A DNA stretch of 64,000 nucleotides from Phoronis australis (GCA_002633005.1 NMRA01000066.1:630940-694939), one strand, 5' to 3'; positions 1 to 64,000 are shown, counted from the stretch's first letter. The notes: generated from the letters alone by a model not told the origin. A program made the numbers and translations.

Positions 1-477
1 ATCTGTGTGCTATTAAAACAGTGAAGACATTCGCTCTTACACCCAACTCCGTGATGTGTATAAAGACATTGCAAAAAAAAAAACAACAAAAACATAAGGG
101 ATTAAGTGACAAGACTTTGAAGAACAACATTTCCCATTGCCTTTATGAAAGATTTAGCCTAGTAAAGGTGGAATCACCTTTTCGGTATTTATGATAGGAA
201 AAATGTATACCACTCATTGGAAGTGTAAGTCCAGGATCGTAGCCAAAAGGGGTCGAACTACAGACCGAGACAATGGGCCCTTGATATTAATTTACATTTC
301 AACAATGCAAACAGTGATCGAGCAGGATTGTCCGGACTGCCGGTTATGCCCACAGTTACTTGATCTGTCAAAAAATTCCTAATTTGCGAGCCCATATGCA
401 ACTGCACTAAAAAGGGCAGAAAGACTAATTACTGAATAAATAAAAGTAAAATTAGGATGTATACTGTTCTATTTCAG

Positions 478-22607: not shown

Positions 22608-22625
22608 AAAAGTTGCTCTTTACAA

Positions 22626-40500: not shown

Positions 40501-43333
40501 TGATGATCTTATTGCTGGAATGACGTCTATGTGCGGAATCCATAAAAAACGAAGCACATAAATCAGACTTAGTTTGCAAAGTCGAACGAGCAGTTTCTGG
40601 CTACAGTATATGAAAATGGATGACATCCTTCGACTTTTTCTAAAAGCAGAAATAACGTCAGATTGGGAACTTCACCTATAAGTAGTTTCTAATATGCTGT
40701 CGTAGTTTGCAGCTGCTGGTTACATCTCATATGCAAAATCTGCATACATATACTTACAGAAGATGCACAAACTCAAAGACACCCACCCAGACGTCTACAG
40801 CACATTTATTAACGGCCACCATGCCATAACACCAAGTGACAGATTCTGGGCTGGCTTTTCATCTGACCTTGTAATTGAACAAACCCTCATAAAAACAATT
40901 AAACCATCAGGAGGTTTAACTAGAGGTTGCGGGATAGGAGATACGCAGCATGTACTGTTGCTGCTTTCTATGCAGGTATGCATGCTCAAGTGTAAAATGG
41001 CGCGAAACAAGTGAGCAGCATAAACGATGTACCCTGACAAAGACATCCTCAGCCTTGTTGAATTCCTTCACAACAGAAATCCATTTGAAGGGGATTACAG
41101 AACATCGCCACTATTGTGACTGCAAGCACACGCGTCAATGCCGAAAATGTCAAAGAAACGGGGAAGTCAATTCTTTTGTCTGTACAGGAGTCGCGTGTAA
41201 AATGCTTCACATTCCGAAATAAGACGAGGTTGTGGCAATGACAAGTCCACTAGTTCATGTTGCCAATATTGACTTTACACAAGTGGATCCACAACTGCTA
41301 TTTCAGCGATTACTGGCAGCTGCAAAAGACAACAGTGAATGTTTATCAAGCCGTTTGAAGTTTGAGTTGTGTGTAGCTTCCCCCGCTCTTTTTGTAACAT
41401 CTGGTCTTCCCAAAGTGGCTGAGCTGATACACTCTGATCCAGGGGAGCACGACCTCCCATGTTAGAAGACTGGGTGGGGTAGTAGAAACTGAAGTTCACT
41501 TCAGTGGTGACATAGTGATCAATTCAAAAGAAGAAAGTTCACATTTTTGGCAAACAGCAAAAACAGACAGGCTGGTTGCACAAGGTCAAGGTGACGCAGA
41601 TATTTAATTGTAGAAACAGCAGTAGAGAATGCAGCACAAGTTCCTACTACCCTCATTGCAGACGATAGAGACTTGATGGTTTTTTTGGGTTACCATACTA
41701 CTTCACAACAATTTCCAATATTCAAGATCCGACAAAAGGCACCAAAACGAGAGGAGACTCCGTGACATCAAGAAACTACAGTTGTCTTTTGGTGCCCAAA
41801 CTTTGGCGCTTTTGCCATTTGCGCATGCAATACGTGGTTGCGATACAACATCACGGCAGTTTGGTATTGGCAAGGCTCTCTCATTCATGAAACTTATCGA
41901 TTGAGAATTCTGCGAAAAGGCTAGTAACTAGACTTGATGAACCTGAAGGAAGACATATTTGAAGCTGGTAAAAGATTTGGGCATTATGTACTTGCTATGG
42001 AAATTTAAATGACTTGCGATGCAGGCGATTTGAGGAAAAGGTGTCATCAAGCATAGCCCAAGTCCAAATACAGTCATTACCACCAACTGCTTCAGCAAGT
42101 CAATTCCTTGCTGCTAGGACAAAAACGAGAGTGGTGAAGTATCGGTGGCAGTGAGCTAGACCCGCTGGATTGAGGATGAATGCTGGCAGGTGGAAAACCC
42201 ATTCCAATTACAACCGACCAGCCAGCAGCACCAGAGAACCTGCTGATGGTAAGATGCTCGTGCAAGACCAACTGCAGTTCCAAGAGATGTACTCACAAGA
42301 AGTTAGAATTGCCGTGCTCGGTTGCATGTGGAGAATGCAGTGATATAAGCTGCAACAATTCATTCTCAGTTGAAAGAGATTAGTTGTGTAAATACTTCTT
42401 AGTTGTGTATAGATTTTGATTACACACTGAGAATTACAGCTTTGGACACACCTGTAACATCACTAAAGAGAACCCGAGTGGGAGCTGTTCAAGCACTTAT
42501 AAACTGTTTAACTTGCCAAACATACCTTACTAAACCTTTCTCCTGTCTCAACTGTTGCTGTATTCACTAGCATTTACAACTAACTGGAGGTGACACAACC
42601 GGTCAATTGGTGTGGTTAGTAGATTGCTGAATTAATCGCGGAGAATTATTTTGGACACAACAATTTTTTTACGGAGAATGACCATCCAGTCTAGCAGAAC
42701 CTAATGTTTTTCACCCAAATAAGTTATTATCTGTTTAACAATCTTGAAAATGGTAGTCGTATCAATCAGAGCCAGACAAAAATAATTTTGATGGACATGT
42801 TGATCTCTGGAACTCCGAATATGAAATCTGTGAAGATGGCGTGTCTCTGTCTAACACAAAGCAACTATTTGGTGGCCATATTAGAAAATTGTGGAAGTAA
42901 TCATTAGAGCCAAACGCAATGAGTCTCAATGGATTAGTTGACCCAGAATACCAATAATGCCATGTTTGAATCAAAACGATACACTAATCTGTTCGTGCGA
43001 AGTTGTGCGACTGGAAGTAGTTTTGGCGGCCATCTTGGGAAAATGGCGGATGGTGTCCCCGCAGCCATGCAAAACTATTTCCAATAGATTTGTTGACCCA
43101 CAGAAGATACGTAAATCTTTTTGAATTTTTACTATATCACATTCCACTCTCGAGTTATAATGGTCATACTCAAATCTGGCGGCCATTTTGTCCGCCATCT
43201 TGAAAAACCAACTTCCGCCACCCCGATTCCAGTTGACTTTTTTCTCACACTAAGGGGTATGAGAGGATACAATCTATGCAATAAAACCATCAGCTGCAAT
43301 TATTTCCGGGTTATCTGTAGAATGACTGGACTA
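37535..43333 (+). mobile_element. Decayed Academ (AcademX-type) DNA transposon, ~5.8 kb
   Basis: Imperfect TIRs: TAGTCCAGTAATTCT...gtttttcaagatggcgg at left, ccgccatcttgaaaaacc...AGAATGACTGGACTA at right. The internal disrupted ORF carries transposase, XPG-like and Cys-rich motifs. The possible 3-bp TSD is imperfect (caa/aaa). Confidence 0.7.
40400..42383 (+). pseudogene. Frameshifted, stop-containing Academ-type transposase/XPG nuclease/Cys-finger ORF
   Basis: Fragments: FWLQYMKMDDILRLFLKAE..DWELHL*; FAAAG..YAKSAYIYLQ; FWAGFSSDLVIEQTLIKTIKPSGGLTRG; DPQLLFQRLL..FELC..PALF; HAIRGCDTTSRQFGIGK (XPG/FEN1 H3TH-like); SLPPT; CSCKTNCSSKRCT.KK..PCSVACGECSDISCNN. Confidence 0.75.
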
Positions 43334-44568
43334 AAATAAAACCATAGTACTTTACTGAAATTATATGTTATAGATGATCAGTTTACTCTAGCACCAATAA
43401 CAGTGACAACATCGGACGGAAAAGTAACAACAAGATAAATTCTGATTTTAACATAAAATGTACGTTTTTGCCTTTCTATGTTATTATTGCGCGCAAATTG
43501 ACATAAACAATAAACAGCATTGGGTACGGACTTTGTGTGTCGCGATTGCCTTGCATCTACTGAACGCATCCTATCTTGATGAATGAAAACATTCGAGAAG
43601 ACCTCGCCAGGAGACATCTTTGGGCCGACCCATTACAACTAAATGTTCAGTTCCAAATAATGTGTTCACTTAAATGCAATGACCAAATAATGCCTATTGT
43701 CTTACTTTCGTCCACATCGCTGCGACAATTTCAGTGCTTTTCAAATAGCTGCGAACAACACCCTACACAATACGCTGCCTCGTCTTTATTTCAGCTCAAT
43801 ACAGCGGTCACGTAATATGGTGCGCAAAGCCTACTTACCACTTGGACGTACTTAACTTTGGAATGGTGATTTAACCGTGTTTCCATATATTGCTAGAGCA
43901 TTGTCCGGACTATGAAAATTCCCCAATAATACAAAATCCAAAAGTTCGTCGGAGGAAGGCTTTAATGATGTCGTGCACAAGTGATTAGTCAATCGACTTA
44001 CTTGCACACAATTTTAATTGCATTCTAAAGTAATGAACCAACAACACATGCATAGAAAGCGTGTATTTCTAATGTCTAGCAAATCACAAATGGTTTTTAC
44101 TGTATAAACACGTCTCACGTCCATTTAATACAAACTTTTGGTTAAAATCAACTATAGTTAAGAAGTTGGAGATTACGCTGTAACTCTGGTCTAATTTGGA
44201 AGAACTGACAGCTTAATATTGCTTGAAACCATTGCCAGTAAGTTGTCTTGTCACATTTTGTGCATGATATTAAACTATAACGCATTGCATAATTGAGTTC
44301 GTTCTAAGACTTGGTATCTTTTGTCTCTTGAGAATGGAACAAGTCAAAAATCAGTTTTAAACCTGTCCATGCTCCAAATTACTGTTCTATTTTGCGACGG
44401 AAGATTGAAGAGTCTCATAGCATCTTCTTATGACTCGTTCAGTGAGCTAACTACAGTTGGGATACCAATAGTCCTGCGCATGATGAAATCTTCTGACGAA
44501 TTTGCAAGCAGATATACTTATGTTTCGAGTCAGTCGGAGTGTCTATAAATGTCATAAGGTGCTACTGG

Positions 44569-47500
44569 TCAATTTCCATGGCTGCCGCACTTCCGGCAAC
44601 GGCATGTGGGACAGCCGTTTTTGTCGTAGATCCTGCCGCATGCACATATGTTCTTACACAGAGGTGGGCACGTTGGACACGGTTTGCACTTGCAGATTGG
44701 ACAACCCTTAACTATGACGTTACCACAGGGACAGAATATCTCACAGACAGGAGGACATTGCTTTTCTGAAAGTTAAAGAAACAAAGAATTGGAACAAGCT
44801 GAAAGCGTATGGATCCAACAGGCATCACATTATCATTGTAAGTTGGTGTCAGTACGGTAGTGATTAAGATATCAATTCTTTGGTAATGAAAACTATGCCT
44901 TTTAAAGTTCGAAATCCATCGTATAGCCATTGTAGTTACCGACAATCAGGGTCTAAATGACGTCATTTTATGGTCAATCAAATGTTGACCATCTGTCCTT
45001 GCCCAAAGTACTCATGTCAAAACAACGGAATTGACGTCATTATTAACGGGGCACTCAAAGTATCAACTCACAAGACTTGTATGGGCAATATCACAACGAA
45101 GTGATAGAAATATGATTTTTCATATGAGAAGTCTTTCTAACCAGGTGCAACTTTTGACTAATTCTTTGAAATTATCAATCGAAACTGACTTTCATAATCA
45201 TTTTAGGAAAATGCAACTAAAATACCTTTGGCCAATTTTTGAAATACATTTAGCGCTACCTTTGCCGCGAAATCGCACCCTTAACATTTTCAAACGCGAA
45301 TTACCAATTGCTTAAACTGACTTTGTCCTTATTGATCATTTTAGTGGTATAGATTTTTGTTTTCTCTGATGTTTGTGCTTGTAAGTCTACAGACAAAACC
45401 CCAAGGACCCTCCGAAAGGTGGGGCGGAAGACGGGTCCAACCACACTGATGTAACGCATCGACATAGGTCAATGAGATCGATTACAGCAACACAACAGCG
45501 TACTTGTACATGTACATGTAGCAAGACACTGAAGAACGTCAGTGGGCTGAAGATACAAGATACACCAAGGCAGGATAAAGTGTCTCTGGAGGACTGCAAG
45601 GCAGCTCTTGGATGCAATATCCAGTGAGACGGCAGAGAAACTGAGTCAGGAAACGAACCACAGCCCCGAAAACCTCAAGTATAAGCAACCGACGCATTGG
45701 CGGAGAATGATGTCACGTCGGTTGTGACACAATTTCTTCGGTTGTTGACGTAATACACTATTCCACATATCGGATAGGATATGTCTTAATCCTCAGTTTC
45801 CGTTGCGGCTGTGGGACTCAATTATCTCATGAATCGCCTCTCTCATCACACGGAAAACCAATCCTCCAAAACACTGCTGAGTCATAGTTATATCCACAGG
45901 CAGGGCAACGTTGTTGATAAACCCTACTTTTAAGCGCCTGCTTCGTTTCCCCCAACAAAGGACGGTGCACATTCGCTTTTCGTTCAGTGTAAAAGACAAA
46001 CCACCAAAAGGAACGAATGTGCAGGGCCCTATGTTGGGGAAACGGAACAGGCGCTTAAAAGCAGGGTTTATATAAACACCGTCGCCATACCTATGGGGAT
46101 AACTATGACGCAGCAGTGTTTATTCACCTTGCGCATCAGACCATGACTTTTTTCTGAAAAATGTGGTGATCCTTGATACTGAGGAGGATTGGTTTCCCCT
46201 TGGTGTGAGAGAGGCGATTCACGAGAGAATTGAGTTCCCCAGCTTCAACAGACACTAAGAACTAAGACAAAACCTATCAGCTATGTAGAATAGTGTACTA
46301 CGTCATCAACCAAAGAAAGTGTCACAACCCGTGATAAAAATGTCCACCAGTGTCGACACGCCAGCACTTCGGGTTCAGAAGATCTGTAAAAATCTCCGAG
46401 ATGGGAACGCTACGTTTTTATTAGTATGCCGTTTGTTTGTGTTGAAGAAGTTTGGTTGTCTTTAATGGAAGACCATTGTAACACCTTCCACACTGTTTCC
46501 AGTTATGCATAGCATTAAAAACTTATTTATTCCGAAAGATCGAACATTGTTCATAATCGGGTCTCTATTGCGGTGACACTTCCAAAATTACGTAGGTGTG
46601 GGAAGCCGGGTGACAAGGGGGCAAACAACCTCTCGACCAAAATATCGGAAGGTGAATGTACGTTTTCGACCCCAAATATTCCGGATAGTAATGAGTATCG
46701 ATTAATTATTCAGTTTCGACACGCAAAATAACATTGAAAATAGAACACTCTCCACCACCATGAAATTTTTCCTACGCCTATGTAACAAAGCAGTGATTAA
46801 GGCAATATTACACGAGTAATTAATTTTTTTCAAAGACAGAAATGTCTGCTGACCATTTTTGCAAGATGAATAATAAAAAAATGGAGCATTTCACTAAAAT
46901 CTTTCACGCCTATTTTAAAAACGATTTTTGGATTGAGAATAAGGCTCCATTCGGTAAGTAATTTAGATAGTTATACTTTTGTTAATTAATGAAACTTCAT
47001 CATCTCGGTATAATTTTTTAACGCTACTAAGTCTGCAAGTGATGATAAAGGGCTATGTCGTTTTGGTCGTCTGACCATCTCAACAAAGCAAAACACAACT
47101 TGAACGCATGGTGCTGGAGAATCACTTCGAAAATCGAAATGTTGCCCAGCAACTTTCACCCACATGGAAATTGCGACAATCCACAGACAGTTGAATTCTT
47201 GCAGTTCAATGGTTTTTAATAACATACCAAAATATTGACAATTTTAAATTCATTTTGTTGGGGACAGGGATGTTTGCAAACTTCAAACTAAATCAAATCA
47301 ATTTAACTGCGGTAAACTTTCCTATCGAATCAGTAAGTGAATTTCAATATTAAAAAGTGTTACACTACAAATAAAATCCTACATCTTAATTTTCAAAGTC
47401 AGCACTGCAAGTGGCGTTAAAAGGAAGGGGTGCTGATGTAACTTACCACACATACATTCTCTTCTCTGGGCAAAGAACCAGATCGTCTTTCTACCGTGTG

Positions 47501-50500
47501 GAGTCCCACGTCTGCATCTGCCTCGGGCAAGAAAGGTGACGTCGCGCGTTTGACATTTTCCCAGAGGACTGAAGTTGCACACAGCACTGTAGAATGGTCA
47601 AAACATTACCTGGGACAAGATTACATTATCTTTTCTATGTTAAGGTGCAGGTTAAGAACATTTGACGTTTTTGATACAGACCAGCATCCTGTTTTGTGTA
47701 TTTTATTAGTTGACTGTGGGCAATAACATTCAGGTGACTGAGATTTCAGAAAATTTGAGAAGTCCTTCCGACTTTTAATTTTTTTTAGAGAGGGACAGCG
47801 AAAGGCAGAGCGATATGGGAAGGAGGTGGAGGGGATGTAGACGGGGGGGGGGGAGAGGAAGCAGGGAAATTCTTATTATTCGACATCTGCTACCATCTCT
47901 AAATGTCATGACCAAATCTGTCCAATATGATGTCATCAGGTTATTGAATACCTTTCCGGATAAAGTCAAAGAGGCAAAAACATTGGCTGCAGTAGATTAA
48001 CTTTGCCGGATCCGCCTGTTAATATCTGGATAAGACATCTGATTGACGGTGTTTTTGCCTGTTGATCCAGCTCAACAAGTAAAATCCATCAAGTGTACCT
48101 AGTTTGTATATCCCAATGAACTGGCGTTTTCAACTGAAGGCCACGTCGTGTGCATCCATGAAAAAATACACGGAATGCCCTGAAGAAGTACGAGTATGCT
48201 TGGATATGGCCCAAGTCTTCAGGCACTAACAGCCACCTTTACAGTTCACAGTGTTTTACAAAACGTTCTCCCACTAGCAAATAATCGACACTCCTATGAG
48301 CGAGAACCTGTGAAAGGGTTGCGATTGTGACTGTGGCTTACACTGTTGTGTGGACTAGACTTAAAAATCCATTACGACTGACCTATTCATTTCTAATTCC
48401 TAATAATTTAAGACGATTACTAGATGACAATGTTAACAACCAACATGAGTGCAATTGTGAGGCCTTCAGAAACGTACACAATTCTTGGTGAGTTTTTGTT
48501 TTTAAGTAATGACGCGATTGAGTTGTATAACGATGCCTGGGCACGCCAGAACCAAGTACTCCATTTTGACCTTAACAGAGAATTTCCATCAAGGTTTATT
48601 TTTTCTACTTGAAAGTGATGAAGCAAATTTTTTCTTTTTCTCTGCTTATGAGCCATTCCAGTTGAGGTTCATGAGTTCACATAAATTTCGAGAACCGAAG
48701 GGTTACAATCATTGCACTGTCATGGCACTCATCGCCTACTGTAGGTCTGATAAATGTGTTTCATATAATGTACCTCATGATAAATGTGGGTTTCATATCG
48801 AGAGTCGCAGTATGTAAATGATCTTACGACCAGCCTCGAAACCTACATGTAATGACTTATATTCATTCTATTCGTGCTTTATTAGAAAAATGTTTCTAAA
48901 TAAGAATGAACACCCACTTACTTTTTCGGACGACACACTGTGTTCTTTACAGGCCTAGTGTAATATACGCCTCTGTATGACCGTGAATAGTAAGTCCGCT
49001 TTTTACACGGACGGGCAGGTTCATGCCAATTATGTTGTCGCTTCTGAAGCTTCTCTTGCACCTCTTCCTCCATGTTTGTTTCTTTAGCTGTCAAATCGTC
49101 AGCAAACGTCTCCTCGGTGTTTCTTATGTCGAAGTCACCTAGTCCAACCTGAGCGTCATTCGTGACATCATCTGCACGCGCGTACGCGTACAGGCATACC
49201 AGGATTAGGGCAAGGAATGCCTGTAAGTTCAAATATCACGCTTAGTTACTAACACTCAGTTGTCATGTAAATGAGCCTTGTTCAGATCACTATTCATAGA
49301 GGGCTATAACAATAAGTGACACTATTTGCTAACGTCACTTCCTCAATTCATTCCTTGCTGGCAACCACCAGCATGACACGCACATGCACACTACAGGTCT
49401 TTGCAACAAAACGTATACCTTAATGGCTAAGAATATCTTGTTATACCAGACGATATTCCATTTGCACCTGTAAAGTAGTTATCAACCACGTTCCATTCTC
49501 CAAAACAAATTTCTAGCAATTTCAGAAATATTACATTTACGAAACGGCGTGATTGTCTTCTTGCTTTATGTCAGAAGTGAAATTGGTTTTAAAAATTCAT
49601 TTAGACAAATCAAACGTTCCAGAACATTTCGAATTTGATCTGAGACATTCAATCCGTGAACAGGAAATTATTTAGCCGGGACAGATGCAATAACAACCTG
49701 ACAGTTCTTCGTGAGTCCAAAGATCTCTTCTAAATTGTGTACGAATTAAGATGAGAAGACCATTTTTATACGGGCAAATGACTTGAATCAGACAGTGTTT
49801 TATTACAAAAAAGTTAAAACATGAATTTAATGTCACTTTGACATCCTGAATCCTTAATCCCACCTTTTCGACTAGCTCGTGTAATTAGTTAATTATTTTA
49901 AAAACTATAGATTTTAACTTAGTAAAAGTGTACATTTTCTGAAAGAATTTGATGCTTGACCTTTTTAACAAACTGACATTAATTGGGTAACGTGACCACG
50001 TCTACTGTCTTTTGGTAAAATTGAACAAAACAATTGCATCGATAACGTAATACGAAGGCCCACACGTGCCATGAAAGAAATTGAATCTGCTAACACGGTT
50101 TGCCAGTCTGTTCATAAGGATTGCCAATCTATTCATAAGGATTGCCAATCTGTTCATAAGGATTGCCAATCTGTAATTACGGATTTCTGATCTCTTAATA
50201 AGGATTTCCAAGCTGTATTATGGATTGGCAATTGGTTGGTTTCGACCAGTGACTCATACGCAGAGCATTGTAGTGGAAGTGCCATCGACCTTTGAGAATC
50301 GTGTTGACTTAAGACAGAGATTTGACAAACTTTGTAGATTTAAAGCACATGCTATAGCACTTTTATAAATATTTTATATGTATGTTACAAGTTTTAATTT
50401 CGATATTGAAATAGTTAAACATTCTACGCACTAATTTTGTTTTGTATGCTCTCGTTTTTGTTGCAGTTTGTTTCCTGGGAAAAAGGACAAGTTCCCTCTC

Positions 50501-53258
50501 TTTGTATTTAACTTATTTCAATCAGTTAAATACAAACATCTAGATCTAGATTCATCAGCCACCTATATTCCATCGTAGCGATTTGAAAAAAAATATGTGC
50601 CTGTACATGATTTGCATTTTGTTTCTTTAAAACCGCATGCTGCGCCATCTTTCTTTTGGTCAATGTTTTGCACAAAACCATTCGTATTTGTTTCTTTTTA
50701 ATACGAAGTGTTAGCGTTCCTAATTAGACATAAAATCATGGACCGAATGGTGTTCATGCTTTGCTAGAACACGAACTGATGTTATTCTAATTTGATGTTA
50801 GTGATTTCGGCATTACCTAGACTACTTGGCACTGCACGGGGCTTTAAGGGGCGTGATTACCTTGTTGTCTTATGTCAAAAGTGAAATTGGTTATAATAAT
50901 TCATTTTCTAACTCAGTACAATTCTTGTCAGCATTGTGCATTTGCATATATTCTTTTCCAACGTTTCGACAAAAAGCACTTCACCATTCCCAACGAAAAT
51001 ATCCAACCACCACAGCATGGTCAGACGTATCACGAACAATAGCTCACTTGCGAGTTTCTCGCTAGTCACTGTGACGTCACCGCAAAGGGGGCAAAACCCG
51101 CCATATTGCTCTTGTTTTGCCCCGAGTCTTTGCTACACACGCTAAAACTTACTGGAGTTCTTATGGTGAATTTTACGCTTAAAACGTTAAAACAACTTAA
51201 GATATGGTAGATGGGTCGTGGAATAACTGTGAATAGACGAAGAAAATGTGACCTTGTTATGTTGTGNAGGCTCTCCTTATTAGCTAGGGTTTCACTGATT
51301 CTGGGGTCGGTTGAGCTCACCCTTTGGGGATATCTTTGACCTCTGCATGAAACTACTTTACAAGGGACCTTTGGTTTAGTTGTTCGTGTTACTTGTAACC
51401 ATTCTTGAGGTGGTAGGAAATTTTTCTTGAAAGTGGTGAAGTGAATTTCATGGAAACGTTGAACATGTATGTATGTAAATTCACGATGCTAACAACAATT
51501 ATGCTGAGTTTTCTAATTTTACTAATGTGACCCAAAACAACTATCGCTAATAATTCATTTTGACAAGTCAAACGTGCCGGTACATATCAAATTTGATCTG
51601 AGACATTCAGTTCGTGATCTGGACATTAATGGACCTAGTATGAATCAATAACAACTTGACAGCTCTTTGTGAGTCCAAAGATTTCTTCTAAGCTGTGTAA
51701 TAAATAAGATGAGACCATGTTTGTACTAGTAAATGACTTAAATCAGACAGTATTTCATTACCAAAAACATTACTTTAAATCAGCTCTAACATCCTTAAAC
51801 TTTTATCAGACTTTACCGACTGGCCCGTGTAATTATCAAACTACTTGAAAACACATAGATTTTAACTCAGTAAAAGTATACATTTTCTGAAAGTAAAGGT
51901 AGCGTAGAATTTGATGCTTAAACTTTTTAACAAACTGCCGTGATTTGGGTACAGTATCTTTTGGTAAATTTGAGCAAGACAGAGATATCAATATCGTAAT
52001 ACGAAACCCCAATAGTGTCATGAAGAAATAAAATTTGAATCTGCTAATACGCTTTTTCCAATCTGTGAATATGGATTGCCAATCTGTTATGTCGGATTGT
52101 CATTCTGTTATTACGGATTGTCAATCACTTATTACGGATTGTCAATCCGTTAATTATGATTGGAAATCCGTAATAACAGACTGGAAAACCATATTAACTG
52201 ATTGGCAACCCGTATTAACAGTTTGGCAAAATGTAATTACAAATTGGTATTCCCTATTAACACATCCATTTTTATTTTTTCTTGGCACGAATGGGCCTTC
52301 GTATACCCTTCCATACTCTTTATGTTATTTCTGATTTTCCTGTGTACAGTTGTAAAGCAAACTGCCAACAAAAGAAGTAAAAATATTACCCTCAGGCACA
52401 TGGTAAAATGAACGTGGTGGAAGTGAAATCAACGGTGAAATAAACAATGTCAGAGAATGTGAATAAAAAACGGCAGAGGTCTAACTGAACACAACCATCG
52501 TGCAGTAAGCTGCTTATTCAGCACAAATTTTGAGACTAATTAATAGAGGCTAAAAATCTGAAACCGAAATGGGTCATTTTATACAAGCGAGAAGTCGTGT
52601 TGCTTGTTATCTCGTTCTATTTATTTTCCAGCCATGTTGGTGTAAAATGATCTTGAATGGACACACCTTTCAAATGCAAGGACAACTGTCGGGATAGAGA
52701 ACATAACGTGCGTTCAATGTAACGCTATTCACAAGAATGAATACGAAAACATTTATCCATAAGACTTGTGAATTCTCATTAACAACATTACATTTGGCCA
52801 CTGGTCGCAATCGTTACCAACATGGGTTGTTCCTCATGACAAGGTTACGAGACTTTATATTGTGATAGTAAATAAGTACATTCCGTCTATCACCTGGTTT
52901 GTTGTTGTCTCTTGCGATCTTTTTCAGCGCATATTTGTCTATCAGATAATCATTTTATATGTTGTTGTTATAGTACACATTATTAATGGTGCTGCCGCTT
53001 GGTTTAATGCCAACATGAGAGTCAAACCTAGGTACGAAAGTCCTGATGTTATTATCAACAAACGAATTAGTGTAACAATTGTTAAATAGAACTTTTTATA
53101 CGACATATGGCAAGCTATGCCTACCCCTTTTAAAACGAATGAGGAAAGGTGAGAGGCATTTGATAACAAATTAAAAATTGAAACCAAAAACACAGTATAT
53201 AGATTGCGTTCTATATCAATACACTGAGAACAAGTTGTTTACTTACAAACTTTTTCAT
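44569..53258 (-). CDS. Secreted Cys-rich precursor, copy A (215 aa): signal peptide + acidic propeptide + KR site + 7-Cys cationic domain + 2 antistasin-like modules
   Basis: Exons (minus): 53258-53247 (ATGAAAAAGTTT|gtaagt; the least certain exon), 49220-48922, 47586-47447, 44765-44569; 648 nt in frame. MKKFAFLALILVCLYAYARA/DDVTND...EEEVQEKLQKR/QHNWHEPARPCKKRTYYSRSYRGVYYTRPVKNTVCRPKNAVCNFSPLGKCQTRDVTFLARGRCRRGTPHGRKTIWFFAQRRECMCEKQCPPVCEIFCPCGNVIVKGCPICKCKPCPTCPPLCKNICACGRIYDKNGCPTCRCRKCGSHGN*. Confidence 0.85.
45660..46380. mobile_element. Penelope-like retroelement remnant (GIY-YIG endonuclease 3' end) as two inverted partial copies
   Basis: Plus strand ~46030-46250 reads YVGETEQALKSRV..HRR / AVFIHL / NVVILDTEEDWFPLGVREAIHERIEFPSFNR across frameshifts. 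~45700-45960 is a diverged reverse complement of this. Absent from the equivalent intron of copy B. Confidence 0.7.
46590..46782. mobile_element. Short MITE (taggtgtggg...cctacgcctatg), also in the paralogous intron at ~61468-61671
   Basis: Imperfect TIRs; present at the equivalent position in both gene copies. Confidence 0.45.
50050..50232. repeat. 21-bp minisatellite (gattgccaatctgttcataag)n inside a partial MITE
   Basis: Three near-perfect units (the source of the NRLAILM x3 ORF), preceded by tacgaaggcccacacgtgcca. Confidence 0.7.
52000..52303. mobile_element. MITE with an internal degenerate 21-bp minisatellite
   Basis: Left tacgaaaccccaatagtgtca, right tggcacgaatgggccttcgta (reverse complement of the 50051 terminus). 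Internal gattgccaatc-type repeats give the DCQSV/DWKSV ORF. Confidence 0.6.
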
Positions 53259-56200
53259 CTTGACCGCACGGCAGAATGAGATAAAGTACAACACATATCC
53301 TTCACAACCCCCTTGTTTGTATGCAAGTACATGCGAGATCGCGATGTCATGACCTTGTCATAACCTCAGTTTTGTTCTGCAACGCGGAACACTTCATTTT
53401 AAAAAGTCACAAATTTCATTTTTTGATGTTCCTTACATACCGGAAAGAAAAGGTAATTTATGTCGAGAAAATTCACTTGTCCATAATGAATGAACCAGCC
53501 TAGATTCCCTGGCTCCTTTTAAAAAGTCTGCAGACCTTGGCGTCCAGTTTAACCATGCTGTGTCTCATTAAAACCGTGAATATTCGAATTCGTAACAAGC
53601 CCACCAAGTGATTTCCTGGAGAACTGTTTGTCCAAGTATAATCGGGTAAAGAGAGTTTTCTAAATAAATTGTAGTCTTAAAGAAAACGCCACTACTGATA
53701 CACTTTATAAATGAAATAAACAAATAATAAAAACTATGCCTCGTTTCATTAGGGTAGAGTCAATGCTGTATGGAATTTCCCAGGGTTTTCCTGTGTCGTC
53801 CTAAGAAGTTTTCACTGCTAAAGACGTAAAATATTATGATGCTTAATGTTGTCCAAGGTGACGGCAAACTGAAATTACAGAACGAATGCTTTAGTTGTGG
53901 TCACAGTAAGGAGTGTCGGCCGAGTAGTCAGACTTCAGTTGTCGGTGGCCTTCAGGTTCCATACATACTAAGATCTTGTACAGACTTAACTATAGAGACA
54001 TTTTAAGTGGATCTGTTTCGATGCAGAGTGCTGCAGGAAAATTAGGATACCTACCCGTTTATGGAATAATTGAATGTAGAAATTCATGATAATTTCCACA
54101 TCATTGTTCCAGAACATAACAGAGAATGTTTTTATTATTCGTTTCTTTCACTACCAAATAACGATTTCGTCATATTTGGAACTACTAGGATTTTTTGTTC
54201 CATTTATTTTCAGTGTATCAGTTGTGGTGCTGTTTAAACCGCGATTTATTTACTGCACATACTAGCTGGAACCTGTGCTCTGCACGATTACCAGCTTGTG
54301 TAAGGGAATCAGCTTTAGCCGGGTTTACTCTACACATAGGAAGTTGCCCTGGTGATACATGCATGAGGAAACAAAAATATCACCTAAAAGGTGTGGTGTT
54401 ATCAATGCTTTTAAGTATTATTTGCTATTGCCATCCAACTTTTTGTTTATCGCATTTCATTCTTTGTCGAAAGTCCGTTTTTATAGTTATTTCACTGCAC
54501 ACAAATGTGATGTCGGTAACACCACAAAGTACAAACCTCAAATTCTCACGTACAGATCTATATGTGAATGTGTGTTTCGCGTGTTTAGCTGTAGCGAACA
54601 AAGTCTTCACGGACAATCAAATTAGCTTGGTGCTGTTCCCATCACATTAGATTTTTGTTGGATCGTTGTGCGAACATAATGTGGAAAAGAGAAGTGCAGT
54701 GGCCATGGAATATAGAATATAGCAGCTTCCGCGGAACACATGCCTCACACTTTGTTGTCTTCCAACAAATGGAGTCTAACCACACACCTCTTTCAACGTT
54801 TCCAGTACCTGGCCCTGTATTGCACGCAGATATTCAAATGATGTTCCATTGGGTTCATGGAGGTTTTGTGCACTAATCATGATCGTAGGCAGTAAAGTTC
54901 AAAGACCTTCGCCCAATAAAATTTTTTGCTTCCTAATTTCCATTTATGAAGATGAAGTTTTCAACTAATAATCGATATTTTTAAATAATTATTTACAAAA
55001 AGGCATTTCTAATCTTGTGTTGTTGTTTTCGTAGTAACCGGTGGCTGTAGAAGAGAAAAGAAAAACAACGATCAAATATACTTGGAGCCATAATACATCA
55101 GTGTTCTCCACGACCAGTTTTAGCTCGTCACTTCATCAGGGTAGCCTTCAATAATGCTATTTTAGGTTAATAGACAGCGCACAACAAGAAACGTTGTGCA
55201 CTGACACCTGTCCTTTAGAATTATTTGCTACAAGTGACTGATTGCTAAAGTTTAATAACTGTCAATTCCACGTCATGAGACAATACACAATAGAGAAACT
55301 TTCATTACACCAGACGTTCACTCATTTGGGATTCATTTATTCATATTACTGAATGCACTCTGGCGTTCAGACACTTGCATTAATTTTACATAAATATGTA
55401 CGATGTCCCATAAAGTATCGGTAAATAAAAAAGTGTTACAGAAATACAGTCAATTCATTTATCCCTTATATGTGAGAATACAGCCATTGAATACGCCGTG
55501 AAATATACCATTGAATACGGAAAGTGAAGCCAGTAAATTTACATTGTTCGAGACCTTATTTCTCGGTTGGTTTAGAGTCTCCTGGTGAAGTAAATTCATG
55601 TGTACGACGGCAAATTTTGATTGGGCTCGTTCCTTTGTTCTATTTAAAAATAGTACGACGCGTCGTTCTTGAAAAAGTAGCAACTACAACTCTAAAACTA
55701 TGAACTTTCAGCAAAGAATACTTATGAAAACTGCTACGCACAGTGATCAGCTGGCTAATTTTAGGCTTCGCTAGTTTTAAGCTGGTTCATCATCAATATG
55801 TAAATGAACTACATGACGGCCCCAACAAAAACAGGCAAACATCTAATTCAAATCAAACAAAAAATTTTTGTTATTAACGCATACAGTATATCTACACTGA
55901 GAACTTTTAAGTTTAAAAATATATGCAGGAAATTGCGACCTAATATCTAGACAGGCGATGAAAGCCAACTCGCTGGTTCCCTGCGTGAAGAGAACACACG
56001 CAGGTACTATTCAGTAGCACGCACTTCATCACTGGTTGATGTAACCTCGGCAGTCATTGGTTAGCTTTGCAACAAAGTGGGAAAGTGGCGGACTATGAAC
56101 GATTTTTAGCCTTGTCATGCAATTGGCGTAGCAGCAACTATTTCGTTTCAGCAGTAATGTTTAATAGCCGCTTGCTTGAAACACTGTAAAATAAACACGC

Positions 56201-57324
56201 ATCTGGCCGATTTAACCGGTGTGTTATTCATACTGTATGAATACAGAACAGCAACGTAAACAAAAGTCAGCAACAGTACAAAGATGCACTCCGAAAAGGC
56301 GCAAACGCAATTTTCTGGTATTCACATTTCTTGAACATGAATGTTAAGCACCGATTTGTCAGTAAAACAGATAACCTTAATTTACACTTCCTCCATCAGT
56401 CATGCCAGTTAGTTTGCGTCAAGCGCTATCTTTTGAGAATTTGACCAGCCAATCAGTAAGGCCGGGGTAAGAAAAATTCTCGAGGAAAATTAAATGATAC
56501 CTGCGTGATGGCTACCACCTAGCGGCAGGCAGGGAACAAGCGAGTGAAAGCCAATGGCTCCATGTATGACGTCACCACAACCTGGGCCCATCTCATCAAT
56601 TGCACCCCTTGCCTTTGCCTATTGATACTCATTACCAACAAACATGAAACATTACATATTAAAAAGCACCACCATGATTATAGAACACACAGAATTTCAC
56701 GAAGACTGGAAATGTTATTTTTTCTTTCGGCTTCTGTGTTTACACTTGGCGACGTCAATCATAAGACTTCTAGTTTTTATCGACTACCATTGCAATTCTC
56801 GACCTAAAAGGCAGCGTATTTTTTCTATTGCAAAAGGGAGCCTTATGAATCAGAGGCAAACCTATCACTGCACTACTTAAGTTGACTTTTCGCCAGCAGA
56901 TGTCAAAGCGAGCAAAAGTGGCAACAATGGCACGATATAGGGTAGAATGCACAAACCAAGAATTGTACCCATTTAAACGATTACAATTTACTCCGGCTTC
57001 AGAAACCTGCGCAAAATTCAGTTCCATGCACACGTCATTGCCTGCTGGCATGGCCGTTTCGCGGTCGACGGAGAGAGGTGGGTAAAAAGCATTCGCTGTC
57101 ATCATGAATATCCGCCAGTAGTGCCGTCAGCTACAGGGCCTTGTACCGTCTGTCGAACCTGAGGTGCACACTTCGCTGGGATGCCACTGTATTGGGGCAC
57201 GACGTGACAGCTTGCACCCAGTTTCACCTTGGGTGGTCTGCTTGCCCAGGACGACTTATCACGTACTTGGCCACTACCGACCCGCTACTTTTATTCGTAA
57301 ACCCTGCACTTTGCAGAAAACGCT

Positions 57325-57925
57325 CTTCTAGTGAAACCGACAACAAAAATTGACCGATAAATGGTGCATTTCTCGAGACTCCAAAAATTTCAACGACCCA
57401 TTTCTGAAACCGGTAACAATCGCCGATAAACGCTGCGTGCTTTTCTTGGCACCTTTTAAGAAAATTTTAAGAAATTCACTGAGGCCAGCCCGGTTACGTG
57501 GCTGTGGACCACATAGCGAGTCGGCAACGTGGGAACTTGCCACACCGGCCACTTTCGCTAATTTTGTAGGATTTCGGGATGTATGCTTGCCGAGATAGCT
57601 TTTATGCCCAAGACCGACAGGCTGTATTTTGGGGGCCATTCAAGGCCCGCCGTTTGCAGAAGACTCACTTCTGAAACCGTGACAACGATAGGGCTTTTCT
57701 CGGGACCCATATCTAAAATCGACAACAATAGCCGATAAGCGGTGCATTTCTCGGAAATTAGCTTGCCACACCGGCCAGCTTGCGCTTACGTCAATTTTGG
57801 GTGTTTGCTTGCCGAGGTTGTCTCACTGCACACGACAGACCGGCAAGATTTGGGTAGCCACCCCCTGCCTGCCTTTTGTACTACACCTTCTGAAACCGAC
57901 AGCACAAGCCGATAAACGGTGCTTT
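57325..57925. repeat. Cluster of degenerate direct repeats (ctgaaaccgacaacaa..gccgataaacggtgc)
   Basis: Motif recurs at ~57330, 57403, 57671, 57715 and 57890; cttgccacaccggcc occurs twice (~57536, ~57762). Confidence 0.55.
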
Positions 57926-58224
57926 TGAGTGTTATGACATGGCCATGGCTTGCGATCTGGCAAATCTACAAACAAGGTGCTTATGAGGTACACTTTTTCA
58001 TTCTGTCGGGCGGCAAAAAAAGCAGTTTATAAGTGAAGCAACTTCTTAGCACTCTGTTGACATACTGTAGCACACGTCCTAAATGTATACTTTATGTTTG
58101 TGATTTATAAATTGTTATCAAATGCCCTTCCCTTCCTTTCTATCGTTTTAAGGGTGTTTGTAAAGGAGTATTTGACATTGACAAACTTATAAGACATTTG
58201 AATGTTTGATTTCAAATAACGTGA

Positions 58225-58745
58225 CTGTTAAACCGTGACACATCTTACGACCTTCGATAAATCAAGCAAGATGTCAAGCGAACTACTTTCTGATACTTGC
58301 CTTGCACCTACATGTAATCTTCCTGACTTTCACTGATCTTTTTGTGAATGCACTCCTGGGATACGTTCCGTAGAGACAGTTTTGTGCGAGAAAACGACAT
58401 CACGCAAGTCTTCGCGAGATGTCGCCGTGTACTACAGGCGATCGTAAGGGAATTGTGTCAAAAATTAAATCGCGAGCTGTTTGTATTTAATTGGAGGTTA
58501 TGCGAACATAAAGTGCCAAAAAAGACGCAAAGCAGCCGCTGAAGCAATGCAGCATAATGGTCTACGATTGAAATGTACATTCAGAGTGCAATCGTGATCT
58601 AGAAATTGGTGCACTTTCAAGAATGTCAGATTGCGCAATTTCTTATGTGACAATCTTGATAACGAAAAAGTTTTCGACTCCTTGATTTCATTTCGCAGAG
58701 TGGTATCAAGAACAAAATGTTAAAGACAAAAATTGACGGGGTTAT
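58225..58745 (+). mobile_element. Diverged copy of the interspersed repeat at 18140-18650
   Basis: Colinear similarity including gaaaacgacatcacgcaagtcttcgcgagat and aaagacgcaaagcagccgct. Confidence 0.65.
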
Positions 58746-60273
58746 TTAATGATACTTCTATGCATAATTGACCTATTGGTACGAGCTATGGTAATGTGGT
58801 TATAAAACAATAAAACTGGTGAAAAATATTATTGTTGAACAGTCGTGAATAGTATTACACAGAAGCCTTAGCACACATTTACGCCAGAAGCAACATTTTA
58901 GTTTCTTGACAATTCACCAGATAGCTTACCTGCTTCAACCATTTTGCCATAAGTCAATTGTTTCATTTGAGGCTCGATTACGTTTCGTCCTCAGAATCCA
59001 TCGTTTGGGGGAATCGGGGTGATGTGATATCCGTAACCGATGCGGAATTTGCATATCTCTCCCATGTCCTTCCCACAAAGACAAAAGCGTAGATTCATGT
59101 GCATCAAGTAATCAACAAACGGGCACACGCACGTTATCCGAGAATTAAGTACAAACTTCTCACCGAAAAAAATACTAGTTTCAAAAAGCGAGAGAACGTG
59201 CGGGACGCTTTCCATTTGCACAAGCAAAATGGCCCATAATGAAATAGATAGCGATGCGAGTTATGGAAGTTTATTTCTGTTTCATGAAAAAATACTTCTC
59301 CCGGAAGTGTGTAACGATTGCACATCGTGAAACATGACAACGTTCGAGAGGACCTCGCCAGAGGACGTCATTTAGGTGGCCCGTTCAACGTTACTGTTTG
59401 TTTGCAAACATCGTGTTGAGAACAACACCATTTACAATACGCTGCTCCATCCTTATTCTTCCTCAGTACAGTGGGCGTTTTGATGCCCTATCTTCTAGCG
59501 TTCACATAGTATGGTGCGTAAAGTCTATTATCCCCTTGGACGTATGAACATGGAGAGGTGATAAAACCGTGCTTCCATATATTGCTTCAAAATTGTCTAG
59601 ACTATGAAAATAGTCCAATAATCCAAAATTGTAAATTCTTTCGGATGAAGGCTTTAATGATGTCGTGCACGGGTGATTAGTCAACCGACGTACTTGCACA
59701 CAATTTTAAATGCATTCTAAGATAATAAATCAACAAAACATGCATAGAAAGCGTGTATTTGTAATGTCTAGCAAATCAAATATGGCTGCTACTGTATAAA
59801 CACGGCTCACTTCATTCAAAAACAAGTTTTTGCTAAAATCAACTGTAGTCAGGAAACTGGTCAAAGTTATACCTTACATAGATAAGACTCGAACTCTCGT
59901 CTAATTGAGAAGAACTGACATCTTAATGTTGCTTTAGGGCATTGCAAGTATGTTGCTTTGTCACATTTTGTGCATGATATTGAACTATAACGCATTACAT
60001 CACTGAATTCTTTCCGAGACTAGGTATCTTTTGTCATTTGAGTGTGGAACAAGTCGAAATCAGTTTTACACCTGTTCACGCTTTAAATAAAAAGTCATAT
60101 TTTTCGACGGAAGGAGGTCTCATTGTATCTTTTTATGTTTCGTTAAGCAAGGTAAGTACAATATGAATATCATTAGTCTTGCACATGATGGAATCTTCTG
60201 ACGAATTTGCAAACAGAGATACTTATGTTTCGAGCCGGTCGGAGTGTCCATAAATGTCATCAGTTGCTACTGG

Positions 60274-63200
60274 TCAATTTCCATGGTTGCCGCACTTACG
60301 GCAATGACATGTAGGGCAGCCGTTTTTGTCGTAGATCCTGCCGCATGGACATCTGTTTTTACACAGAGGGGGGCACGTTGGACACGGTTTGCACTTGCAG
60401 ATGGGACAACCCTCATCCATGACGTTACCGCATGGACAGAATATCTTGCAGACGGGAGGACATTGTTTGACTGGAACTTAAAGGAAAGAAAAATTGGAAC
60501 AAGCTGAAGCTTATGGAACCAGGAGGCATCACTTCCTGATATCAACGTAAGTTGGCCTCAGCACGGTTGTTATTCAGATATCATTTCACTGGTAATGGTA
60601 ATCTATCGTATAGCCATTTTAGTTACCGACAATCAGGCTCTAAATGACGTCATTTATGATCAATCAAATGTCGACAATCTTCCCTTACCCAACGTACTCA
60701 TAACGATATCACAACATTCATTGCTCTTGATTGGGATTTGTCAACGCCTGATCGTCACTCTGTCAGCAAACAAATCCCAATCACGTTTTATGCCCCTTGA
60801 CGTCATTATTTACTAGACCCTGAAAGTTTCAATTTATATCGTCACTCGATTGCCAATACCACCACGATGTGACAGAAATAGCAATTTTCTCTCGTGTGTG
60901 GTATTTGTAGGTACGGCTGTGTTGGGATACATCACAAGGCAGACAAGGGAATGTCCAGGAAATGGCTTTTGGCGTACACAAACATCTACTAAGTATTTCC
61001 GAAAGTTGACTCTTTATATAGTGGGTCAGAAAATATCCTACAACATAGCAAATTTTGGGACAAATTGTATTTTGAAAATGTCAACTTCCATCCAAAAGAC
61101 GCCCACTCAAAAGAAGAAGTTTGGATCAACGCATTTTAGATAGGTGTTAATGACTGTTAAGTAAACTACGCTCATAAATTCAGACTTTTTAAAGTTTTAA
61201 AAGCTCTTTCGTGCATTTTATATAATAGTTGGAACTTTTACTCTGGATTGTAAATTTTCGTGTGCGACGAAGAATCAAAGTTGGTTTAAAGATGATATCC
61301 TTCGTGCCAATTGCCGTTTCTTTATGCTTAAGAAGTTTGGTTGTCTTAAGTGGAAGATCATTGTAACATCTTACATATATGCAGAGCATCAAACAATTTT
61401 TTTTCTAAAAAAGAGAAAGATCCTTTTCAACATCGGGTCTCTATTGCGGGGACACTTCCAAAATTATTTAGGTGAAGGAAGCAGGGAACAAGGGGTGAGC
61501 ACCCCCTCAACCAAAATGTTGGAAGGCTGATACAAGTTTTCGACCCCAATTATTCCGGATAGTAATGACTATAAATTAATTATTCAACGTTTGGAGACGC
61601 AAACTCTGTTTTAAAATAAAACTGAAAATAGAACACTCTCCCCCCACCATCGAATTCTTCCTACGCCTATGTAAAAAAAGCATCGATTGATGTAAAATTA
61701 AATGTGAAATTAATTTTTTCAAAAGACAGAAAGATCTGTTGACAATTTTTGCATTATGAATAGTAAAAATTGGGGGAAATTCACTAAAATCTTTCACGCT
61801 TATTTTAGAAAAGATTTTCGGATTGAGATTAATGTTTTACTATACCGTAAGTGATTTTGATTGTTATACTTCATTAATTAATGAAACTTCATCATTTCGG
61901 TAGAGTTTTCTAATGCTACTAAGTCTGCAAGTGATGATAACAACTTTTAGTCGTCTGACTTTCTTACCCAAACACCACACAACTTGCACGCATGCTGCTG
62001 GAGAATCCCTTCTGAACACCGAAATATTTCCCAACAACCTTCACGCATATGAAAATTGCGACAATCCACAGAGCTGAATTCTTCGAGTTCTATGGTTTTT
62101 AATAACAAATGTTGATCATTTTAAATTGAGGTTGGTATATAATAGGGGCGCTTGCAAACTGAAATAAATCAATTTGACTGCTGTAAACTTTCCTATCGTA
62201 GCAATAATTGAACTTAAATATTAGAAAGTGTTCCACTGTATATAAAATCCAACATGTTAGTTTTTATAAAAAAGCACTGCACGCGGCGATAAAGGGGAAG
62301 ATTGGTCAAACTTACCACACATACATTCTCTTCTCTGGGCAAAGAACCAGATCGTCTGTCTACCGTGTGGTGTCCCACGTCTGCATCTGCCTTGGGCAAG
62401 AAAGCTGACGACGCGTGTCAGACATTTTCCCAGCGGACGGAAGTTACACACAGCACTGCAGAATGGTCAAAACATTACCTGGGACACGATGATATTATCT
62501 TGTCTATGTTAAGGTGCTGGTTAAAAACAATTTGAGTTGTCTAATACAGACCAACACCTTGCCTTGTGTAACTACAGAGTTTATTAGTTGAATGTGGGCA
62601 ATACCACTCAGGTGGCTGGTATTTCAGAAAAAATTAAAATACCTCTCGACTTTTGGTTTTGTAGTTCAAATGCAAGATAAAAAGGGAAGAGCGAACTGCA
62701 GAGGAAGAGGGGAGGTAGGTAGGTGAGCGGGNAGAGGGGGAAAGGTGTCAGGGAGAGAGAAAGCAGAAAAATTCTTGTGAGTCGACCTCTACTACAATCT
62801 CTAAAAGTGATTTAAGTCACAATCAGATCCGCCCAGTATGATGCCATTAAATTAGTGAATGCCTTTCCGGATAAAGTCAAAGATGCTAAAACCTTTGCTG
62901 CGTTTAATTGACTTTGAAGGCCCCACCTGTCATCACAGTTGTAAAAACCATACTTAAAAATCCATTGCGACTGGGTTATTCATTTCTAATTCATAATTAT
63001 TTTAGACGATTACTGATTAGACGGAGTTATTCATTTCTGATCTACAATCATTTTAGATGACAATGTTAAAAACTAACATGAGTGGACCTACGTAAATGTA
63101 AACATAAGTTTAGTTAATTAAACCGTGTGATTATTTGTTCTATTAACATGATGTATCATACTCTAGTAAGTTGTAAAGATATGTTGTTGGGGCTACCCAA

Positions 63201-64000
63201 CCCAGCCCGATCTACTTCTCACTAATGACATGCTTTATGGGTAAATAAACGTATTGAAAAAAAACATGGGTGCATTCGTGAGCCCTTTAAAATCACACGC
63301 AAGCCTTTTGTTTTTAAGCAAGGACGCGATTGAGGCGTAAAACGATGTGAGTGCACACCAGAACAGAGTATTCTATTTTGACCTTAACTCAGAATTTGTT
63401 TTTGCGTTTTATTTCCTCTGCTTGATCGTGAACAAGCAAACTTACATTTTATTTCTTTTCCCCTGTTTCTGAGCCACTCTGGTTGACCAACTTCAGGACC
63501 ATGAGTTCAAAATAAATTTCGGGAACCGAAGGGTAACATTCATAACACTGCTGTGCCACTCCTCGCGTACTGTAGGTCCATCAAATGTGTGTCATTTAAT
63601 GTACCTAATGATAACTGTGGGTTGTCACATCGAGAGTCGGAATGTGAAAATGAATTTGCGACCAGCCTCGATACACACATATAATGACTTTTATTCATTT
63701 TGTATTACAAAAACGTATCTCAATAAGAATGACCATCCACTTACGTTTTCGGACGACATACTGTGTTTTTTACAGGCCTAGCGTAATACACCCCTCTGAA
63801 AGACCGGGAATAGTAGGTTCGCTTTTTACACGGGCGGGCAGGTTTATGCCAATTTGCAAATTGTCGAGTCTCAAGATCATCTTGCGATTCTTTCTCCATG
63901 CTTGTATCTTTAGCTGTAAAGTTTTCAGCAAACATCTCCCCGGTGTTTCTTATGTCGAAGTCACCTAGTCCATCGTTAGCCTCATTCGTGACGTCATCCG
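60274..64000 (-). CDS. Secreted Cys-rich precursor, copy B (5' end outside window)
   Basis: Exons (minus): >64000-63745, 62455-62316, 60470-60274; the last two have the same lengths and phases as in copy A. ...DDVTNEANDGLGDFDIRNTGEMFAENFTAKDTSMEKESQDDLETR/QFANWHKPARPCKKRTYYSRSFRGVYYARPVKNTVCRPKTAVCNFRPLGKCLTRVVSFLAQGRCRRGTPHGRQTIWFFAQRRECMCVKQCPPVCKIFCPCGNVMDEGCPICKCKPCPTCPPLCKNRCPCGRIYDKNGCPTCHCRKCGNHGN*. Confidence 0.85.
63085..63262 (+). mobile_element. 5'-truncated non-LTR retroposon 3' end with poly(A) tail and 10-bp TSD
   Basis: Ends taaataaacgtattgaaaaaa; flanked by aacatgagtg (63075-63084) and aacatgggtg (63263-63272). Copy A has the empty site (a single aacatgagtg at ~48442). Confidence 0.7.

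Follow-up and report, generated by a model that had tools for sequence, protein, structure and literature searches.

What kind of secreted protein results when a very basic domain of seven cysteines is joined, in one precursor, to a pair of antistasin-type repeats? This question is raised by a 64,000-nucleotide stretch of a Phoronis australis contig (GCA_002633005.1, NMRA01000066.1:630940-694939; hereafter the window), which carries two genes of this design, A and B, both on the minus strand and at the place given for them in a preliminary description of the sequence. We find that A and B are real paralogues and that the architecture they share is real and lineage-restricted. The seven-cysteine domain is likely to be a growth-factor cystine knot, and we lean slightly toward placing it in the noggin/trunk branch of these proteins. 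If the knot reading holds, both modules would be of known kinds, and their pairing would be what is new.

Two expressed paralogues encoding both modules

Transcript evidence came from one contig set and three stranded raw-read runs (X1, X2 and X3), listed by species label, of which 12.8, 11.3 and 11.0 million records were read, respectively (∼18-19% of each run). First mates over the exons map to the plus strand, the pattern that minus-strand RNA gives in most stranded libraries. The joint between exons 3 and 4 of gene A (44765/47447) is spanned by 66, 123 and 287 reads in X1, X2 and X3, and that of gene B (60476/62316) by 121, 389 and 122 reads. Because these joints are read in RNA, the seven-cysteine domain and the antistasin repeats are encoded in one mRNA; the preliminary description had named the absence of such a transcript as grounds for giving up the architecture, and the joint is present in all three runs. 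The same is true of the exon 2-exon 3 joint, which in gene A (47586/48922) is covered by 68, 190 and 437 reads; that of gene B (62455/63745) is also read in RNA. In total, 1,477, 3,254 and 4,979 reads map to the region in the three runs, repeats included.

Gene A has four exons and encodes 215 amino acids. Exon 1 (53247-53318) contains the 5' untranslated region (UTR) and, at 53258-53247, the first codons of the putative signal peptide (MKKF); loose read ends behind 49220 match 53247 (137 reads in X2, 461 in X3), reads end at 53264-53318, and a GT donor is present. Exon 2 (48922-49220) encodes the remaining signal peptide, the acidic pro-region, a putative QKR/Q cleavage site and the first two cysteines (C1 and C2) of the seven-cysteine domain, while exon 3 (47447-47586) encodes C3-C7, with the CxC at its end; both exons have AG/GT ends. 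The coding part of exon 4 (44569-44765) holds two eight-cysteine antistasin-type units and the stop codon, and is followed by a 3' UTR (44114-44568) with ATTAAA at 44129-44124, just past which, near 44114, the transcript ends, as do many molecules in X1 and X2. An exon candidate at 49419-49467, with good splice signals, was dropped: no joint was listed for it, and exon 2 joins 53247.

Gene B is truncated by the end of the window. Its exon 2 (63745-64000) encodes the pro-region, an ETR/Q site, C1 and C2, with 75% protein identity to exon 2 of A, and its exon 3 (62316-62455), with both joints read, encodes C3-C7, identical to A in 40 of 46 residues. The coding part of exon 4 (60274-60476) again holds two antistasin-type units and a stop codon. 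Its acceptor at 60476 lies six bases ahead of the one that matches A, so that the linker of B is two residues longer. The introns of gene A are in phases 0, 2 and 1, and the phase-1 intron, between the seven-cysteine domain and the antistasin part, falls exactly on the domain border. A phase-1 intron between domains is a sign of exon shuffling.

The precursor layout is alike in the two genes. Judged by eye, a putative 20-residue signal peptide is followed by an acidic pro-region of 45 residues that ends in QKR (A) or ETR (B), with 14 Asp/Glu in each pro-region against 6 Lys/Arg in A (counted along exon 2 as far as the cleavage site) and 4 in B (partial). The seven-cysteine domain that comes next has a net charge of +17 (A) or +19 (B) and cysteine gaps of 23, 6, 7, 12, 19 and 1 in both; with the 16 cysteines behind it, the mature part contains 23. 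The layout, the cleavage sites, the charge contrast and the cysteine pattern and count proposed in the preliminary description all agree with these results for both copies; its gene models are revised at two points, with exon 1 of A now at 53247 (MKKF) and exon 4 of B starting at 60476.

Genes A and B do not represent an assembly duplicate. We rejected that explanation because similarity between the introns, one 31-base block excepted, is no more than 72-83%, and because A-type and B-type joints occur in all three raw runs (B-type joints in X1-X3: 69, 205 and 16 reads, and 31, 94 and 37 reads). Blocks of A and B are mostly 72-83% alike across exons and introns over ∼4.5 kb. The tandem family described earlier amounts here to a pair of paralogues; tblastn found no third copy within the 64-kb window. 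More than one class is present among the B-type reads: at 44643, for example, C>G is carried by 13 of 155, 60 of 450 and 1 of 533. These classes may be alleles or a third copy. The ratio of nonsynonymous to synonymous divergence (dN/dS) between A and B is 0.054/0.30 for the seven-cysteine domain (83 codons), 0.064/0.41 for exon 4 (65 codons) and 0.21/0.14 for the pro-region (45 codons): the seven-cysteine domain and the antistasin part are both under purifying selection.

Two introns of gene A have features of their own. In intron 3, minus-strand transcripts seen in X3 alone (44899-46135) run over an inverted-repeat element (45695-46352) and are spliced to exon 4 by way of four donors (16, 4, 21 and 3 reads); because no in-frame Met precedes exon 4 on the path from these donors, these products are probably non-coding and derive from an intronic promoter. 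Intron 1 contains a 600-base duplicate (49590-50262 and 51548-52304) that includes tandem repeats of 21 bases, degenerate and present in either orientation.

The antistasin repeats and the seven-cysteine domain

The 16 cysteines of exon 4 form two eight-cysteine units. The Pfam Antistasin profile (PF02822, gathering cut-off 21.2 bits) matches A at 27.3 bits (E 5e-6) and B at 32.3 bits (E 1.4e-7), in two stretches each, in agreement with the antistasin-like units noted earlier. Two repeats above the Pfam cut-off place this part close to the antistasin family, including its short repeats of the Hydra type; it differs from leech antistasin, which has ten cysteines per inhibitor domain (PMC7851590) rather than eight, and from the family as a whole in that its repeats come after an unrelated seven-cysteine domain. 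In a register taken from an alignment with bdellastasin, the predicted P1 residue is Lys in three of the four units and Glu in unit 1 of A; in leech proteins, P1 Lys or Arg goes with trypsin-type inhibition (PMC6265900). A search with exon 4 matched one of 19 candidates, the antistasin-only protein P0001, at 56% identity. P0001 is a 138-residue secreted protein consisting of the eight-cysteine antistasin-type unit alone, without the seven-cysteine domain, and because it is made solely of this unit, the unit exists as a free module.

Evidence for a cystine knot comes from the cysteine spacing, a sequence motif and a predicted hairpin. By pattern alone, the domain has the arrangement of a growth-factor knot (bonds I-IV, II-V and III-VI, with a CxC end). 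The knot cysteines of human noggin (155, 178, 184, 192, 228 and 230) are separated by gaps of 22, 5, 7, 35 and 1 (PMC9034678), and six of the seven phoronid cysteines fit this register, with gaps of 23, 6, 7, 32 and 1 when C5 is left out. By eye, hemichordate and nemertean trunk-like sequences in a published supplement (PMC6660194) share the layout of seven cysteines, with one finger-2 cysteine and no CC doublet (gaps 22, 4, 6, 16, 26, 1 and 22, 4, 6, 16, 27, 1). An aromatic-aromatic-x-R-x-hydrophobic motif stands at a fixed distance ahead of C2 in both A and B, and 4 of the 6 positions of the noggin/trunk motif found there (aromatic, aromatic, P, R, aromatic, hydrophobic) are matched in each. 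Random cysteine placements came equally close to the noggin register in 61 of 300,000 cases, or in 1,915 of 300,000 with the first cysteine, the span and the final CxC fixed, and shuffled sequences contained the motif ahead of C2 207 and 247 times in 400,000; these tests were devised after the match had been seen, and against one of several families considered. Over the 11 residues up to C2 there are 7 identities with a ctenophore trunk-like protein (by eye, the best of ∼30).

AlphaFold models of the two halves of the domain differ in quality. For the exon-2 piece, strands 11-19 and 25-35 form one long hairpin between C1 and C2 (mean predicted local distance difference test score, pLDDT, 70.6), which in this model may correspond to finger 1 as a knot requires. 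Paired as in a knot, the cysteines of the domain would give a ring size of 11; the ring counts 10 in noggin, 14 in NGF and 8 in TGF-beta/VEGF (PMC3592873). Because exon 4 holds an even count (16 Cys, 2 x 8), the spare cysteine is most likely C5 of the seven-cysteine domain, which gives a place to the odd cysteine that the preliminary description had counted among the 23.

How do these features compare with known members of the branch? The phoronid proteins resemble noggin in R-x-V-K ahead of C2, T-F/V-L past C4, the E-C-x-C end (all by eye) and their basic character. They differ from it in having a 45-residue pro-region with no clip-like segment (by eye) and no long N-terminal region, one finger-2 cysteine against the noggin pair, and a shorter finger 2; the terminal dimer cysteine of the noggin CxCxC is absent, the cysteine past CxC belonging to the antistasin exon, and the cleavable acidic pro-piece, the antistasin tail and the intron within the domain are features of A and B. 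With trunk, PTTH and invertebrate type-T1A IL-17, a branch widespread in invertebrates (PMC11087794, PMC6660194) within which IL-17 has trunk as its closest relative (PMC11087794), they share a putative secreted precursor with a predicted C-terminal knot; they differ in lacking the Trp ahead of C1, DLG and an intact PR(Y/F) motif, in a C2-C3 gap of 6 rather than the usual 4, and in their Cys-rich tail.

Several observations weigh against the knot and the branch assignment, or against the function we discuss below. The post hoc design of the random tests is one. Within the PR(Y/F) motif, Pro and the second aromatic residue are absent from both genes, the family motif past C4 is absent from B, and the last Trp lies 8 residues ahead of CxC, as against 11 in noggin (by eye). 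The AlphaFold model of the exon-3 piece is poor (pLDDT 50), and its sole hairpin, 32-37 with 40-45, is not the pairing expected for finger 2. The cleavage site of gene B is a single Arg, with no dibasic pair, and expression, by read depth, is on the high side for a hormone-like signal. The alignment with bdellastasin is weak (E 0.75), and CRIM1 has antistasin-like domains as well, so that protease inhibition is not implied by the repeats.

Homologue searches likewise returned no support. The domain is split by an intron. Queries were half-domain pieces of 38-99 residues, and because every query was such a piece, only close relatives were detectable. Within that scope, Pfam gave no family at E up to 10 for any of the four pieces, its Noggin profile included, and sequence searches of the PDB gave no cystine-knot chain. 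Exon 2 matched none of 91 candidates among longer proteins at E up to 1, and an exon-2 alignment none of 43 near-length proteins at E up to 10; exon 3 matched none of 1.84 billion representatives at E up to 0.001. The ESM Atlas gave a single match (0.76) without a family and no usable named match. From 121 stretches, a scan of metagenomes returned 4 loci, each matching over 17 residues; the one inspected is an off-frame match within a long bacterial open reading frame, and the other three were taken as chance. The fold search with the exon-3 half model listed four chains at Z≥2 (best 2.8), none a cystine knot, and that with the exon-2 half model reached Z 2.1 with no cystine-knot row (Foldseek best E 1.2). 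On half-domain models such as these, fold searches are to be regarded as uninformative. With models of the two halves, and with no cystine-knot match from the profile and structure searches, the knot fold is likely rather than proven.

Possible roles and rival explanations

The noggin/trunk branch includes both BMP (bone morphogenetic protein) antagonists and receptor ligands, and has switched between these roles in evolution (PMC9071555). A ligand role in defense or repair is our first choice, because the phoronid proteins have no clip and have a cleavable pro-piece. In the mechanism we tentatively propose, which is short of an even chance and, taken whole, less likely than the knot fold or the branch assignment alone, a clip-less knot of the noggin/trunk/IL-17 branch would act, once its pro-piece is cut, as a polyanion-bound defense or repair signal that carries trypsin-type inhibitor modules. 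The precursor would be secreted via its signal peptide, and cleavage at KR (A) or R (B) would release the mature part, the acidic pro-piece masking the +17 to +19 domain until then. Knot bonds would form between C1 and C4, C2 and C6, and C3 and C7, leaving C5 free to link two chains. The cationic knot might then bind heparan sulfate or microbial polyanions and surfaces and engage a receptor of the Torso/IL-17R type, binding to such double-FN3 receptors being the defining interaction of the trunk/PTTH/noggin-like branch (PMC11087794). The two antistasin repeats could inhibit nearby trypsin-type proteases through P1 Lys. A self-limiting loop within a single polypeptide, in which a trypsin-type protease cuts the pro-piece and the freed knot dimer inhibits that same protease via its antistasin repeats, would make these proteins a new class of cytokine in the noggin/trunk branch; it is conceivable and quite unlikely.

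The main rival keeps the knot scaffold and changes its use. The protein would be an abundant cationic effector (antimicrobial, agglutinating, or mucus- or clot-forming), its antistasin repeats shielding it from proteases; we consider this rather unlikely. It would account for the fairly high read depth and for an acidic pro-piece set against a mature domain of +17 to +19. Defensin precursors have such a layout of acidic pro-piece and cationic mature domain. Coagulogen, moreover, is a knot protein used in clotting (PMC2586362). Trunk-like and noggin proteins, however, likewise bear acidic and basic stretches, only two copies are seen in the window, and A and B are under purifying selection, without signs that they diverged rapidly. 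Nothing tested supports the toxin-like character once suggested for these proteins, whose mature part is under purifying selection. Decidedly less probable is a trap function like that of noggin, aimed at BMP/TGF-beta or another growth factor, in which the antistasin units would serve for binding or as spacers, on the model of CRIM1, even though the noggin cysteine register is the closest and an aphid noggin construct lacking the clip retains BMP inhibition (PMC9071555). CRIM1, a BMP regulator with four antistasin-like domains, shares with A and B the presence of such domains within a growth-factor regulator, and differs in being a large membrane protein that contains IGFBP and VWC domains and itself lacks a knot. 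Against a trap, A and B have no clip-like segment, second finger-2 cysteine or terminal dimer cysteine (by eye), and a cleavable pro-piece is more like trunk and PTTH.

Two further explanations concern the fold itself. The preliminary description had named the domain Spaetzle/neurotrophin-like, and a Toll ligand of this type is very unlikely. Spaetzle and the neurotrophins are likewise pre-pro-proteins with seven cysteines and one likely intermolecular bond; a signal peptide, a cleaved pro-domain and seven cysteines with a spare for dimerization are Spaetzle traits (PMC8637286, PMC9427763). In A and B the agreement is by count only, seven cysteines past a basic site, together with a C-x6-C(NF) step like that of Spaetzle. 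Spaetzle has cysteine gaps of ∼36, 6, 13, 29, 0 and 1, with a CC doublet and a long C1-C2 loop. The phoronid domain, by contrast, has no doublet, a C1-C2 gap of 23 and a third gap of 7; the expected ring of 11 is closer to noggin (10) than to NGF (14) (PMC3592873), no Pfam match was found with the half-domain pieces, and no C-terminal antistasin part on Spaetzle or neurotrophins appears in the literature examined. By cysteine register and motif, the Spaetzle label fits worse than the noggin/trunk/PTTH/IL-17 branch. Alternatively, the domain may be a lineage-specific disulfide-rich fold whose spacing matches a knot by chance, which we hold to be unlikely. The absence of profile, sequence and structure matches, the poor exon-3 model and the post hoc tests would all follow from it, and the C-x19-CxC end recalls Dickkopf and prokineticin. 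Domains of those proteins combine a similar end with a CC doublet, which is absent here. Searches with halves of 38-99 residues had little power, however, and the spacing, the motif register and the predicted C1-C2 hairpin agree independently, which favors a knot.

What would be new in this architecture? The preliminary description did not recognize it, and no annotated family with it was found in our sequence and literature searches. No fusion of antistasin with a cystine knot or noggin is named in the titles or abstract openings of the matching papers listed, a set that leaves most subscription papers uncovered; entries on antistasin and cystine knots are mostly venom and mucus surveys, and the one on antistasin and noggin concerns Hydra regeneration. 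Short antistasin or window-derived strings had no match in the available part of a 913-sequence trunk/noggin file, and the trunk-type and noggin sequences examined there end at or shortly past the knot. If the noggin/trunk assignment is true, a very divergent member of the branch that has acquired an inhibitor exon would illustrate how knots take on new functions by exon shuffling, and profile searches would be missing part of the family; should the knot reading fail, the domain would be a new disulfide-rich basic fold for which no relative was found. Genes A and B are small and expressed, and it is easy to assay whether their products block proteases, antagonize BMP, activate receptors or have antimicrobial action.

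Other features of the window

On the plus strand, numerous open frames, each 95-185 codons long, lie within 436-16600 and look like the exons of a single large extracellular protein in which beta-rich domains are repeated; Pfam gave nothing significant for 12 single frames of this region, and by eye 12504-12959 and 14497-14865 look like a discoidin-like part. On the minus strand, a 219-codon frame at 33750-34409, with a hydrophobic stretch behind a short N-terminus, resembles a first exon from a gene for a type II membrane enzyme and had no significant Pfam match.

The remaining features are repeats. Near-exact tandem duplicates (97%) at 17841-22612 and 31171-31718 meet at N (20229 and 31448) and are likely assembly overlaps or haplotype doubles; part of the 17841-22612 duplicate recurs at 80% at 58209-58747. 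Segments at 2292-3209, 30058-31200, 37573-43305 and 45695-46352 are flanked by long inverted repeats (78-96% complementary) and resemble miniature inverted-repeat transposable elements or DNA transposons. At 51038-51266, 54661-55200 and 55987-56470, reads are rich in mismatches and have loose ends, with both strands represented at 51038 and 55987; these clusters are dispersed repeats transcribed elsewhere in the genome.

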